From NCBI GenBank assembly GCA_022813865.1, contig JALDZX010000047.1, positions 1-64,000 on the forward strand: 64,000 nucleotides of DNA, read 5' to 3'. Origin of the DNA: Xylographa opegraphella. Lineage: Eukaryota. Below are positions 38,243-45,229 of the stretch, piece after piece. Both the position numbers and the translations under genes were made by a program. Every line of letters starts with the position of its first letter. Within the stretch, counting starts at the first letter, position 1. The notes below the pieces were generated by a model. That model saw only the letters and a program-made list of their open reading frames with translations. It did no database searches and was not told the origin of the DNA.

Positions 38243-40501
38243 TTACATCATGTGCTTAGGTAAAAATGCCCATATTGTTCCTATGACCGCCATGATGGAA
38301 CAGATAATAATCAAAAACCAATCCAAGATTCTCTCCTTCATGCTGATATCCTTACCAAATAGCTTTAAATAAAATGACAGGGGAAGAACAACGCAAATGG
38401 TAAAACAAAAGGCTGAACCCATAAGCGCCATTACTCGGTCGAATGACGGGCAGAGAATGGCAATAACCAGGATAACTATGGTGGTCAGCGCTCGAATGGA
38501 AATCTTGAGGCACCCGCGAGTGAATCCGGACAGGCCTACTAATCCTGGCGTATCTGGTACATGTCCAGGTTGTAAGCCAAAGAAGCTCTCGATTGTGGTA
38601 AAGATAGGTCGAGCACTACTAATTGATTAGCGACGAATAACAATCTAAGAGGATAGATTCACTTTAGTGGTATTTTGGTAATGGGAATAATAGCAATGCA
38701 TATAACAATAAGCACCGAAATCGAATTTGGATACCCTTCGGTCACAAAAATATTTGAAGTCACTTCATCAAGGATACCGCTGCCGAACATGAGAAACCCT
38801 GCTATAGCCATACTCAAATCCAAGATGTACTATATTTGGTAAGATACAGCGAACCGATGAGGGAGTCTATAATCCAACTCACGGTAAAACCAAATGTCCA
38901 CTTCAAGCTCCTGCGATATTTCTTTGGATGTCGCATATCTCGGTATATATTCGGAAATACCGAGTGGCCGCCCCAAGGAGCTTCAAACAAAGTCAATTCT
39001 GGACGTACAGAAGAGAGAATGCACCTACACATCAAAAGACCAAAGCTTAGAGGCAAAGTATACCAACTCTGAGGGAAAAGGTATGTGGTAGCAGGCTCAC
39101 GCAACGATCCAGGCGTATGCGGCTTTAGCAGTCCGTCGATGAAAACAAACACTACGACTAGAATTCCGTTAGCATAATCTACATCAGTGTAGAGATAAAC
39201 GATACTCACTTCCGAAACAACATATAATTCCCAATGAGCTTGAGTACCCTAGCAATCGTAATGGAACAAAGCACAATGGTAGCATTATAATACCACACAG
39301 TATCTTCCATTCCAAGAGGCCCCATCCAGGTATCAGAGCATCAAGGCTATCGGCGAATAATACAAATAGTGCGACACAAGCTGCAATGAGCTCAAGGCTG
39401 AATAATATACCAATAATGACTTTCGCTCGCGAACCAAACGAAACATATGCGATATCTGCAAAGGTGATTAGACCTCTGTCAACATCTAGACATTTCCCAA
39501 GGAGCGTGGCGGTGTATGCAGTTATTATGGCAGCAAACGACAAGAATAGCAAGCCAATGAGCCAGCCAGCATAATTTATACCCAAAGGAAGACTGAGAAG
39601 GCCAACTCCGATTAGTACATTTGTACTATTCAACACCGTCTGGTAGATTGTGCTTTGCCCGACGACCGTCAAAACAACTTTTCCGTCCTCTTGCTCAACT
39701 CGTTTGACCAGCAATGGTTCGAGTTCCTTATCGGGTTCCTGAAGACCAGTGATTTGTTGCTCGTGGAATAATCGCGAAGCATGTCGCTTAGACGACTCGT
39801 TGAGACGAGCTGACAATGAGCCATATGTGCCATTGTTGATGGAGCCTATAGAAGAACCCAGATAGGATGCTTGCGAGAAAATATCATCGTCGCCACCGAT
39901 TGGAGAACTTGCGACGCGATTTTGAGATGCTATCCGGGAGATGTCCTCGGTCTCCTCGATATCCTCCTGCACAGCAAGATCTGATGATGTACCTTCTTGT
40001 TCGAGTTGTTGACGCAACAATGATCTGTGGGTGGTCTGACCACATTCCTCATCCTGTTGTTGCCCGATAGCCCCTTGGTCATCCTCGGTCACTAGAAATG
40101 AGGACCGACTTGGCGTTATCTCATGGAAATTGATTGCTCTTTGCCATGATCTCGCGAAACTCTCGACACTGTTGACACCGCCTACTTGTGTGAGGGCATT
40201 GATACGGAGCGCGATAGACGACCTATAGAAAGGCCAGGGTTAGTACAGCAATTCCTTCAGATGTAACAGGTATTGACTTGCGTAAACAGAAGAGAGGGTG
40301 AGCTTACCGTCTCCTCCGAAGATCAACTTCTTGAGTGCCACTATCTCGATTGTGGTGTTGTCCAAGAAGTCCATCGTTCTCTCCGTGGGGAGATGAATCG
40401 CCGCGACGTCGTCCCCTGCTCAGGATAGACGTGAAAGAGCCATGCCTTGGCGATGATCTCCCACGTTCGTACTCGTCCCACGTTAGGGTGTTTTTCGCCA
40501 T
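38243..40501 (-). CDS. AVT1: Vacuolar amino-acid transporter, AAAP family (AVT1-like), multi-exon; 3' end approximate
   Basis: GQSTIYQTVLNSTNVLIGVGLLSLP, ELIAACVALFVLFADSL, PWGGHSVFPNIYRDMRHP, MALMGSAFCFTICVVLP. Confidence 0.88.
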
Positions 40502-41309: not shown

Positions 41310-42718
41310 ATGAGTGCCCCACAAGCAAATGAGGCAGAAAAGAATATCGAGATTTGGAAGGTCAAGAAGCTGATCAAGCGCTTGGAGGCCGCGAGAGGCA
41401 ACGGAACATCCATGATCTCGCTCATCATACCGCCGAAAGATCAGGTCTCTCGAGCCGCAAAAATGTTAGCTGAAGAATTTGGCACGGCCTCGAATATCAA
41501 GTCTCGGGTCAATCGCCAATCAGTCCTTTCAGCTATTACCTCGACCCAGCAACGTCTTAAGCTGTACACCAAAGTACCACCGAATGGTTTGGTCGTATAT
41601 TGTGGCGAAATTATCACCTCCGAAGGTAAAGAGAGGAAGATCAACATAGATTTCGAGCCTTTCAAGCCTATCAATACATCACTCTACCTTTGTGACAACA
41701 AATTTCATACGGAGGCTCTAAGCGAGTTGTTGGAATCGGACCAGAAGTTTGGATTTATCATCATGGATGGTAATGGAGCCCTCTTTGGGACACTGAGCGG
41801 TAATACACGCGACGTGGTACACAAGTTTTCCGTTGATCTGCCTAAGAAGCATGGCCGTGGTGGACAGTCCGCCTTGCGTTTTGCTCGTCTTCGTGAGGAA
41901 AAACGTCATAACTATGTGCGGAAAGTTGCAGAACTAGCAGTCCAGAACTTTATCACCAACGACAAAGTCAACGTTGCAGGTATTGTCCTCGCAGGATCCG
42001 CTGATTTCAAGAACGACCTCAACCAGTCAGACTTGTTTGACAATCGTCTTCAATCCAAAGTCATTAAGGTTGTTGATGTGTCATATGGAGGGGAGAATGG
42101 ATTTAACCAGGCGATCGAGCTAGCGGCCGAAACCCTCAGCAATGTTAAGTTCATTCAAGAGAAGAAGCTGATCGGCAAATACTTTGAGGAAGTCAGTCTT
42201 GCGGGTGGTCGGGTAAGCGATGATCTCTGTCTGCTATTTGATGCACACATATAGCTAATGGCATGCCAGGTATGCTACGGTGTTGAACAAACTTTGAAAG
42301 CATTGGAAGCAGGAGCAGTTGAAACGCTCATTGTGTTTGAGAACTTGGAAGATACTCGATGGGTTCTGAAGACGTCCGATGGCACGGAGATCGTTCTGAT
42401 TACGAACAAATTACAAGAGCAGAATCGAGAGCAGTTCATGGATAAAGAAACTGGTCAGGAGATGGACGTTGTCGACCAAGCTCCCTTCCTCGAGTGGCTA
42501 GCAGAGAAGTACAAGGACTTTGGGGCAACTCTAGAATTTGTCTCCGACCGATCCAGTGAAGGTAACCAGTTCGTCAAGGGTTTTGGAGGTGTTGGAGCTA
42601 TGCTCCGTTACGTACTCAACTTTGAGCAAATGGCTGATGACGACGAAGACGAGTTTTACGATGGTTAGATCAATATGCCAGCATCTTTTGTGAAGCTAAT
42701 TTTGGCGGATTAGATTGA
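41310..42718 (+). CDS. SUP45: Eukaryotic release factor 1; introns 42213-42269 and 42664-42713; spliced end EFYDD-TGA
   Basis: [34 protein letters not shown], acidic tail. Confidence 0.97.
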
Positions 42719-42906
42719 CGGTTTAGAAGCCTCGCACTGAGCGAGGATCCGCTTCCGGATTTCCCAGAAAGGGAACATTCGACGGCTCTTCGCATCCCGT
42801 CTCACCACTCTGCCGAGCTTATCAACGAATATATGACAGGCAAGGCTGGACCAAGCCATCAAAAAGCTCGGCTTTGATCACAGAATGAGGGCTTGAGGCG
42901 ATTTGT

Positions 42907-42974
42907 GTAAGCTAAGCACAGAGCTCCCCAAAATACTTTGACGGGGTGATTTCGAACTAACTAAGGATTACTAG
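42907..42974 (+). other. Predicted 3'UTR intron of SUP45
   Basis: GTAAGC donor, ACTAAC branch at 42956-42961, TAG acceptor; 68 nt, typical local size. Confidence 0.7.
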
Positions 42975-43260: not shown

Positions 43261-44187
43261 CTATAGCATCACAATACTGAAATTATTCCTTGCTCCACCA
43301 GGCCGCAGTTCCACTCTTCTATATGGTTGTCGCTGGGTTTTCTCTGCTCTTTTGAATTGCCAGAGGTAATACACAAGCTTCTTACTCAACTTCTTCTGGA
43401 CCAACTCGTAGCCCTCGTTCATTATGATTCGTTCCAGCGTCTCCTCATCGAGATATCTGGAGTTTAACACACAAGGCGCGGGAAGCACCAGAAACATTGC
43501 CGGAAGAGCGTCTTCTATTTTCCCTTTTCCCCAAACTTGTAATCGTTCGATATTTTGGCTCATTCTCAGGAAGCTGCCCACCCGCCTCAGCATGGCACCC
43601 CTTTCTTTGGCATCCCCAATGTAATTCACTACCAGGCTCAGACTCACAAGATCAAAGCCCTCTTCATGAAGAAGCCCTATTTCAGGTAGTGGCCTTTTCA
43701 TAAAATCCTGCTCCAAGATATCTGCATGCTTTGAATGCAAGTCTATCCTCTCAACATCAAAATAGCCGCTGCGAGAGCATGCGTTGTCGACCGAGAGCGC
43801 TCCGACTTCGAGCAGCCTCAACTTCCGATGCGATTGCGTCGTCATATGCGTAGGATTTTCTTTCAGTATAGGAGTGAGCCATTCCATCAAAACCCGGGAA
43901 GTGTCACCGCCTCGCCTGGCTGATTGTCCCAAAATGCTAGCGTGCTGGTAGCTGGACAAGCCACCAGCAGCGTCAATTTGAGATTGTAGAGACGTCGCAA
44001 GTGAAGCATCTTTGGTGGCGACAGCTTGGGATAACTGTTTTTGCAAAGTATGGTGCTTGCGGATCACGTTGCGGGTTGCGCGAGACGAGAGTGATGGGAG
44101 AGGCTGGGGATTTGGTGGCCGGGTGTGCGAGAGGAGGGTGGGCTTTTTTGACCGTCGCTTTTTGGCGCCCATTTGGGAATTATTCAT
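43261..44187 (-). CDS. BMT2: 25S rRNA adenine-N1 methyltransferase
   Basis: GGLSSYQHASILGQ..RGGDTS, LLEVGAL, ILEQDFM, SLSLVVNY, VLPAPCVLNSRY, NNFSIV; ATG at 44187 or 44172. Confidence 0.92.
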   Translation of the reverse strand: MNNSQMGAKKRRSKKPTLLSHTRPPNPQPLPSLSSRATRNVIRKHHTLQKQLSQAVATKDASLATSLQSQIDAAGGLSSYQHASILGQSARRGGDTSRVLMEWLTPILKENPTHMTTQSHRKLRLLEVGALSVDNACSRSGYFDVERIDLHSKHADILEQDFMKRPLPEIGLLHEEGFDLVSLSLVVNYIGDAKERGAMLRRVGSFLRMSQNIERLQVWGKGKIEDALPAMFLVLPAPCVLNSRYLDEETLERIIMNEGYELVQKKLSKKLVYYLWQFKRAEKTQRQPYRRVELRPGGARNNFSIVML

Positions 44188-44417
44188 TGGATGCGGTAGA
44201 TGTAGCCAGCCACAAGGCCAACTGCTGGTAACTAGAATCAGCCCATGCCAAAAAGCTGAATCTGGAAGAGACAGGTTGTCGCCGTGAATGTGGATGATGG
44301 ATGGACTAAAGTTTAGCCGCTCCTTAGCCCACAAACTAGGGCTCTCTTGCGAAGCGAGCGAAAAAGCGCGAACATCTAATTGAATATCATCGACTTTGAT
44401 AATTCGATCCAGCAACA

Positions 44418-45229
44418 ATGGCGCCCAAGGAGGAGAAGACCAAGAAGGGTGAGTAATACTGCTACGGTATCTTGAGCGTTACGTGTGTAGAAGTTGGATG
44501 ATGCATTCTCGCCACGGCGGAGCTATCATGCACAACCACCGATATTGGAGAACTGCAACGTCTTCCGGCCAATAATCATGCTGAGTGTGTTAATTTCAGT
44601 GGATATGTTCGCTAACAATCTGATGATTAGACGACAAGTCTAAGTCGAAAGGCAAGAAGCCCAATGCCAAAGCCTCTGCCGCTGCGAAGGCTACTCTCAA
44701 AGGTGTACGTTGTGTCCAGTGGCTTACCACTTCAAACTCTTCGACTGACATAATTCTGTGTAGGTGAACTCCCACAAGATCCGGAAAGTCCGCCTTTCCA
44801 CAACCTTCCACCGGCCCAAGACCCTGCAACTTTCCCGCGCACCGAAATACCCTCGAAAATCAGTTCCTCATGAACCTCGCCTCGATCACCACAAGGTCAT
44901 CATCCATCCGTTGAACACCGAGAGTGCAATGAAGAAGATTGAGGAGAACAACACGCTGGTTTTTATTTGCGATGTCAAGGCAAACAAGAGGCAGATTAAG
45001 GAGGCGCTAAAGAAGCTGTATGATGTGGATTGTGTGAAGATTAACACATTAATCAGGTATGTCATGATCCTTTCACAGGGAGAGTCAATGTTGCGGGGTG
45101 TATTGCACGATCTAAGAAACTAATCTGTGAAAATTCGACAGACCCGACGGATCGAAGAAGGCATATGCGAGATTGACGCCTGATGTGGATGCGCTGGATA
45201 TTGCGGCGACGAAGCTATCCATTGTCTAG
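44418..45229 (+). CDS. RPL25: 60S ribosomal protein L25 (uL23); four exons
   Basis: [55 protein letters not shown]. Confidence 0.97.
44493..44589 (+). ncRNA. Candidate intronic box C/D snoRNA in RPL25 intron 1
   Basis: Oversized 182-nt intron; box C-like ATGATGC at 44498, box D CTGA at 44581; 13/14-nt antisense to a conserved 18S segment at 44527-44540. Confidence 0.5.

Follow-up and report, generated by a model that had tools for sequence, protein, structure and literature searches.

A probable autoregulatory 3′ end, combining stop-codon readthrough with nonsense-mediated mRNA decay, in the eRF1 genes of sampled filamentous ascomycetes

The level of the release factor eRF1 sets stop-codon fidelity cell-wide, and how this level is sensed by the factor itself is a basic question. 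The erf1 gene of Neurospora crassa is reportedly autoregulated by stop-codon readthrough together with nonsense-mediated mRNA decay (NMD) elicited by an intron in the 3′ untranslated region (3′UTR) (Kurilla et al., FEBS Lett 2020), and the circuit is said to have been proposed for many fungi; 3′UTR-intron NMD has reportedly been described in Neurospora as well (Zhang & Sachs, Genetics 2015). Fungal enzymes are also reported to carry cryptic peroxisomal targeting signals of type 1 (PTS1) that readthrough exposes (Freitag et al. 2012). To our knowledge, the circuit has been shown experimentally only in Neurospora and plants. Here the 3′-terminal part of the Xylographa opegraphella eRF1 gene is described from a 64,000-nucleotide stretch of genomic DNA (contig JALDZX010000047.1, positions 1 to 64,000; called the window below). 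The comparisons make it probable that this 3′ end carries a readthrough-NMD (RT-NMD) autoregulatory 3′UTR common to the sampled filamentous ascomycetes. Circuits of this type have been described for Neurospora erf1 and plant eRF1-1, and the window represents a further member, adding a lichen-forming lineage. Neurospora erf1 shares with the window the gene, the fungal subphylum and, as reported, the logic proposed here, of a leaky stop, a 3′UTR intron and readthrough that shields the mRNA from NMD.

In Neurospora, NMD dependent on the exon-junction complex (EJC) proceeds via spliced 3′UTR introns, according to the excerpted text of PMC10578600. For plant eRF1-1, the excerpted text of Nyiko et al. 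(NAR 2017, PMC5397192) describes a conserved readthrough context, a next stop separated by less than 25 nt from the 3′UTR intron that follows it, and a proposed removal by readthrough of the EJC, which sits 20-24 nt before the junction. The window resembles the plant gene in its readthrough stop context, in a next stop near a predicted 3′UTR intron and in a poorly conserved extension. The two differ in the stop signal, which is a tobamovirus-like UAG-CAAUCA in plants and UGA-CGG (or CAA) with a hairpin here. In that excerpted text (PMC5397192) no downstream stem is mentioned and the words 'stem-loop' and 'hairpin' were not found; the plant extension is given there as lacking a motif, whereas here its last tripeptide is conserved.

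Two further groups of readthrough signals are relevant. In the excerpted text of Firth et al. (NAR 2011, PMC3159437), UGA-CGG/CUA is classed as a type II and CAA-UYA as a type I readthrough context, with viral stimulatory stems 7-12 nt past the stop. The viral type II signals are like the window in UGA-CGG, in a similar spacer (11 nt here), in a GC stem and in enhanced synonymous-site conservation, but the stems in that text have 10-12 or more bp, loops of about 100 nt and compensatory changes, whereas the stem described here has 6 bp, a loop of 5 or 8 nt and no covariation, and lies in a cellular gene. Readthrough that exposes cryptic PTS1 is reported for fungal and animal metabolic enzymes (Stiebler et al. 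2014, PMC4207609). As proposed for the window, a leaky UGA is followed there by an extension ending in a [SA][RK]L-type tripeptide. Those enzymes have short extensions and a peroxisomal metabolic role, whereas here an extension of about 50 residues belongs to a translation factor and the tag occurs in part of the lineages.

Stop context, hairpin and extension

The gene was identified as eRF1 because Pfam domains eRF1_1, eRF1_2 and eRF1_3 (domains 1, 2 and 3) were all matched and the product of exon 1 (301 residues) is 100% identical to the annotated eRF1 of Xylographa soralifera and X. parallela. An earlier, sequence-only reading of the window had proposed a leaky TGA-CGG stop, a 52-codon extension and a 3′UTR intron as parts of a readthrough/NMD switch, and a check of sequence and frame found all of its coordinates right. 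The coding parts and the elements around the stop are as follows.

41310..42212, + strand: eRF1 exon 1, 301 codons, domains 1 and 2 (ATG at 41310; translation; Pfam eRF1_1, eRF1_2)
42213..42269, + strand: intron 1, GTAAGC..GCTAAT..CAG, 57 nt (sequence; the exon join reads as in homologues)
42270..42663, + strand: eRF1 exon 2, domain 3, up to the first base of the last codon (translation; Pfam eRF1_3)
42714..42718, + strand: last two bases of the final Asp codon and main stop TGA, 42716-42718 (GA[TC]-TGA-C-spacer-hairpin pattern in 80/81)
42719..42729, + strand: readthrough context CGG and rest of the 11-nt spacer, CGGTTTAGAAG (spacer of 11 nt in all 80)
42719..42877, + strand: readthrough open reading frame, 52 codons, RFRSLALSEDPLPDFPEREHSTALRIPSHHSAELINEYMTGKAGPSHQKARL, with second stop TGA at 42875-42877 (open frame; no Pfam family)
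42730..42746, + strand: conserved hairpin CCUCGC-ACUGA-GCGAGG, 6 bp, 5-nt loop (folding energy and conservation)
42745..42762, + strand: hairpin GGATCCG-CTTC-CGGATTT of the sequence-only reading (-6.3 kcal/mol, z -1.05; absent from the consensus fold)
42779..42793, + strand: conserved block TCGACGGCTCTTCGC, S-T-A-L-R in the readthrough frame (alignment; tblastn matches to annotated long isoforms)
42866..42874, + strand: last three readthrough codons GCT CGG CTT, Ala-Arg-Leu, fitting [SAC][KRH][LM] (consensus match; relatives)

Conservation was assessed in a protein sample of 120 eRF1 homologues and in a DNA sample of 80 eRF1 loci plus flanking sequence, which a search of metagenome contigs with the exon 2 protein had yielded and which are 70-83% identical to that query over the best matched segment. 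The nearest named relatives of these loci are lecanoromycete, eurotiomycete, dothideomycete and leotiomycete eRF1s, best-hit labels that are rough and entered no count. Totals of 81 denote the 80 metagenome loci plus the window and totals of 48 the non-redundant loci; since the loci are related to one another, counts across them are not independent events. In the window alone the layout features are within chance expectation, and they are significant because they are conserved in relatives.

A TGA with C as the next base, a spacer of 11 nt and a hairpin of the CCTCGC-loop-GCGAGG type occurred together in 80 of the 81 sequences, the exception being L076. The codon after TGA in these 80 was CGG 48 times, CAA 23 times, CAG 4 times, CGT and CCA twice each and CTG once, and the TGA-CGG of the window, which the sequence-only reading had singled out as leaky, thus lies in a conserved readthrough-promoting context. 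The hairpin arms in the window are CCTCGC (42730-35) and GCGAGG (42741-46) around an ACTGA loop, 11 nt past the stop; the fold has an energy of -10.7 kcal/mol (z -2.63), and the motif occurs once across the 64-kb window. The arms were exactly CCTCGC/GCGAGG in 74/80 sequences, and the loop was 5 nt long in 64 and 8 nt in 16, a 3-nt difference that preserves the reading frame. Among the 47 non-redundant sequences used for alignment and consensus folding it is the sole helix, with stem pairing in 98.6% of cells and three C-to-U changes that preserve a U.G pair. Inside the arms the third codon positions are invariant (CTC, xGC, GAG), while the first position of the loop-side xGC codon varies between A, G, C and T and encodes S, G, R or C. 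This combination points to a constraint on the RNA and not on the encoded peptide, so the hairpin appears to be constrained at the RNA level. A role as a readthrough stimulator is inferred from its sequence and position. The hairpin was not found described in titles and abstract openings among the literature matches listed, and the Neurospora erf1 papers may already describe it.

The sequence-only reading had placed a different hairpin after the stop. That structure does exist at 42745-42762, but its fold is weak and it is missing from the consensus of the 47 relatives, so it was rejected as a conserved element; the conserved hairpin immediately upstream had been missed. The single locus of the 80 without the conserved hairpin (L076:2903-2992) reads ..EFYDSD-TGA-CAT.., although 100 open codons still follow its stop in frame. 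Three divergent loci (L049, L061 and L074) group together, sharing TGA-CAA-TAC, a loop of 8 nt and a U.G or mismatched stem; their extensions are open for 148-198 codons and a candidate intron occurs only at about +400.

A 52-codon open frame alone is unremarkable, and a Pfam search with the 52-residue extension matched no family. Across relatives, the post-stop frame was open for at least 48 codons in 48/48 non-redundant loci, compared with 5/48 and 0/48 for the other two frames. A PTS1 has the consensus [SAC][KRH][LM], and the extension of the window ends in -ARL. Where the second stop precedes the 3′UTR intron as in the window (type A, below), extensions end in -SRL, -SKL, -ARL or -AHL in 14 of 18 non-redundant relatives, and among all frames with a found stop such an end was present in 29/77, or 18/56 distinct ones. 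The background of [SAC][KRH][LM] before a stop was 0.3-0.6% (55/9306 open-frame ends in the loci, these ends included, and 6/1911 in the window). The Arg codons used at the tripeptide were AGG, AGA, CGA, CGC and CGG and the Leu codons TTG, TTA, CTT and CTG, with Arg replaced only by Lys or His and Ser only by Ala. Preservation of the tripeptide through synonymous codon changes is an independent argument that the frame is translated. Extensions whose frame crosses the junction (type B, below) end otherwise, as ..LVHG^RSSLRHMAMV (a caret marks a splice junction) or ..GPSKLRNV.., and the same motifs are present in public annotated long isoforms. The PTS1-like tripeptide on the readthrough product may be a new point: no link between eRF1 readthrough and PTS1 was found in titles and abstract openings among the literature matches listed.

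Between hairpin and tripeptide, the TCGACGGCTCTTCGC block matches a ..CTGACGGC.C.TCGC / LTA(P/L)R block of the relatives. In relatives this block, as CTGACGGC.CCTCGC, repeats the stop-context TGACGG and in many also the 5′ hairpin arm CCTCGC, and the repeated CCTCGC could pair alternatively with GCGAGG. Its Thr codon was ACG in all inspected sequences, and this invariance suggests a constraint at the RNA level. Out of the readthrough frame, 42850-42888 (+) encodes TKPSKSSALITE-stop, resembling the ends of intron-crossing extensions, ..GPSKLRNMVTE-stop and ..RPSPLRSMMTAT-stop; in the window it sits before the 3′UTR intron. It may be a remnant of a shift in frame or intron position between the layouts, or a nucleotide-level element. 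A hidden intron joining TKPSKSSALITE (42850-42885) to the readthrough frame was considered and rejected, the blocks being separated by about 54 nt with no splice signals by inspection.

Introns in the 3′UTR and in the last codon

Two introns bear on the 3′ end of the mRNA.

42664..42713, + strand: last-codon intron, GTTAGA..GCTAAT..TAG, 50 nt (GT..AG; same place in relatives)
42907..42974, + strand: predicted 3′UTR intron, GTAAGC..ACTAAC..TAG, 68 nt (consensus pattern; position shared with relatives)

The predicted 3′UTR intron starts 188 nt past the main stop and 29 nt past the readthrough stop. Relatives were scanned with a crude home-made splice-site scorer, and a candidate was given by 44/48 non-redundant loci, with its 5′ site at +182..+199 in 22 of these 44 (+191 in the window). 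Two layouts were distinguished. In type A (18/48) the candidate 5′ splice site follows the end of the readthrough stop by 3-38 nt, as in the window; in type B (22/48) the frame crosses the junction and the stop is typically about 35 nt beyond it. Of the remaining loci, 4/48 have either no defined stop or one that precedes the candidate by more than 55 nt, and 4/48 have no candidate at all, two of the latter being transcript-like contigs. In the window as in both layouts the next in-frame stop is thus in a position not expected to elicit NMD, and the placement rule that emerges is that the extension ends within about 35 nt before the 3′UTR junction, or beyond it.

Splicing could be followed in transcript-like contigs of relatives. 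L043, a transcript-like contig 99.3% identical to L040, is without two 48-nt GT..AG segments, one in the coding sequence and one in the 3′UTR at +182, and the layout of this pair is that of the window, 29 nt separating the stop from the junction. A like pattern was obtained for L029 versus L031, for L026/L033 versus L019 (a 54-nt segment) and for L008 versus L010 (a 62-nt segment). The orthologous 3′UTR intron is spliced in four lineages. Stop context (80/81) and open frame (48/48) are conserved in relatives, and the position of the candidate intron (+182..+199) is shared by 22/44.

The last-codon intron separates the first base of the final codon from the other two. Removal of 42664-42713 gives G^AT for Asp and a protein end ..EFYDD, followed by TGA at 42716-42718 and then CGG. 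Among the 78 sequences in which the ..EFYD end was located (77 loci and the window), an intron interrupts the last codon in 29, the window among them, as G^GT...AG^AT-TGA-C, and 49 have an uninterrupted GAT-GAT-TGA-C there; beyond the 78, L004 and L005 carry the intron and L053 is without it. Splicing restores the identical GAT-TGA-C in every intron-bearing sequence. Exactly ..[FY][YF]DD ends 48/120 homologous proteins, and 47/120 have ..DG with unrelated tails that vary in length, which would be expected if gene predictors read into the intron. Together these comparisons indicate that the last-codon intron is real and that ..EFYDD is the canonical end.

If the intron is kept, the window reads GAT GGT TAG at 42660-42668 and the protein would end ..EFYDG at TAG, 42666-42668. 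The sequence-only reading had regarded this as an extra splice choice of stop codon. The alternative end is present in the window, but reading through the intron in the two Xylographa annotations gives GELDM.. with no stop, from which GTGAR.. without TAG can be deduced there. Because the congeners read on through the kept intron, the EFYDG-TAG end is peculiar to the window sequence and is not a conserved second stop. An in-frame acceptor that the last-codon intron might use instead lies at 42761-42767 (+), TTTCCCAG^AA, and its use would skip the stop and the hairpin; by alignment, the CCAGA block at this site is kept in many relatives, also in ones without the last-codon intron.

Public eRF1 models of filamentous ascomycetes range from 367 to 515 residues with conflicting C-termini, 48/120 ending in ..DD, and Talaromyces marneffei has three annotated isoforms of 434, 447 and 504 residues. 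Many of the gene models appear to run through the last-codon intron or to splice around the stop, and knowledge of the true layout would correct them.

Proposed circuit and alternative readings

The elements fit a feedback circuit in the following way. Removal of the last-codon intron would give an mRNA end ..GAU UGA CGG, in which the UGA-C context and the GC hairpin 11 nt downstream would make termination inefficient and sensitive to the supply of eRF1. Splicing of the 68-nt intron 188 nt downstream would leave an exon-junction complex behind. With plentiful eRF1, ribosomes would halt at UGA, the complex would stay and NMD would degrade the mRNA; with scarce eRF1, some ribosomes would read the 52 codons to the stop 29 nt before the junction and displace the complex, and the mRNA would be stabilised. 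Readthrough, splicing and NMD in this organism are predictions drawn from the DNA. The switch architecture at the core of the sequence-only reading is strongly supported by the conservation of every element and by the intron-less transcript-like contigs of relatives, and that interpretation as a whole is partly supported; its suggestion that the circuit is thereby extended to this lineage adds little, the layout being common to the whole sample of related fungi. What the locus offers are concrete cis-elements, a near-invariant hairpin 11 nt past the stop and, at the C-terminus of the readthrough product, a conserved tripeptide.

Several observations weigh against this circuit. Peptide-level constraint on the body of the extension is slight, with pairwise differences at codon positions 1/2/3 of 0.17/0.21/0.24 in one group and 0.58/0.57/0.68 in the other. 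Chance would supply 0.72 matches to the strict intron pattern per 64 kb, and 49/100 shuffles had at least one; 8/48 non-redundant loci are without a suitably placed candidate by the crude caller, and the sequence would permit a poly(A) site before 42907. The 5′ splice site GTTAGA of the window is unusual, being the sole one with T at +3 among the 29 last-codon introns. No compensatory double change was found over the 6 stem pairs in the 47 sequences and the arms never co-vary, so the stem structure rests on invariance and energy, and the element could be a sequence-specific site.

An ordinary 3′UTR that by chance contains an open frame and an intron-like string would account for the window taken alone, given the expected number of intron patterns and the fact that a 52-codon frame is not rare. 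Such a coincidence is highly improbable and already contradicted by the comparative data, the elements being conserved in 80/81 and 48/48 sequences and splicing being seen in transcript-like contigs. In another explanation there is no programmed readthrough, the hairpin and nearby blocks acting as a binding, stability, localisation or splicing element and the long forms, where they exist, arising when a different 3′ splice site is used and the stop is thereby bypassed; an invariant stem without covariation is what a sequence-specific site would show. Annotations in Aspergillus, Talaromyces and others join ..EFYDG/E straight to SEDERPE.., splicing round the stop, T. marneffei has its three annotated isoforms, and the window has its possible in-frame acceptor at 42761-42767. 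The annotated long forms are mostly predictions, however, and the 50/81 sequences without the last-codon intron keep stop context, hairpin and open frame, so that splicing cannot supply the extension there. C follows TGA in all 80 pattern-matching sequences, as for a decoding signal, and loops whose lengths keep the frame, like the conserved final tripeptide, speak for translation of this frame, which leaves this explanation quite unlikely.

Translation of the frame is also the premise of another explanation, that readthrough mainly makes a second protein, an extended eRF1 with a PTS1 end (-ARL here; -SRL, -SKL or -AHL in relatives), the link to NMD being secondary or absent. The 14/18 stop-before-intron relatives with a [SAC][KRH][LM] end, their synonymous codon variation and the low background (55/9306 and 6/1911) speak for it, and readthrough-exposed PTS1 is an established fungal device (PMC4207609). 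It could coexist with RT-NMD. As the principal function it is nonetheless unlikely: the tag is not universal, since extensions that cross the junction (22/48 relatives) have other ends, the counts derive from related and non-independent sequences, a release factor has no obvious job in peroxisomes, and the constant distance between stop and intron is explained by the logic of NMD and not by targeting.

RT-NMD autoregulation and the tripeptide may also be read jointly. Protein-level selection might keep the type A tripeptide (here -ARL) as a peroxisomal import tag that clears a possibly interfering extended eRF1 from the cytosol, the ..G[RP]S.LR.M.. end of other lineages might be another disposal or regulatory signal, and the invariant hairpin might be read by a specific factor and not merely serve as a physical barrier. 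The last suggestion derives from the lack of covariation over the 47 sequences of the alignment, a set whose closest named relatives come from several ascomycete classes. This joint reading is put forward tentatively, as a conceivable but doubtful elaboration.

Genomic surroundings of the gene

The eRF1 gene is followed by a convergent neighbour.

43261-44478, - strand: convergent gene, Pfam Bmt2, 25S rRNA adenine-N1 methyltransferase (E 5e-76)

From the Bmt2 stop (43261) to the eRF1 stop there are 542 nt, which gives room for both 3′UTRs. Upstream of eRF1, an open frame at 39184-40239 (-) matches Pfam Aa_trans (amino-acid transporter) and is probably a single exon of a larger gene.

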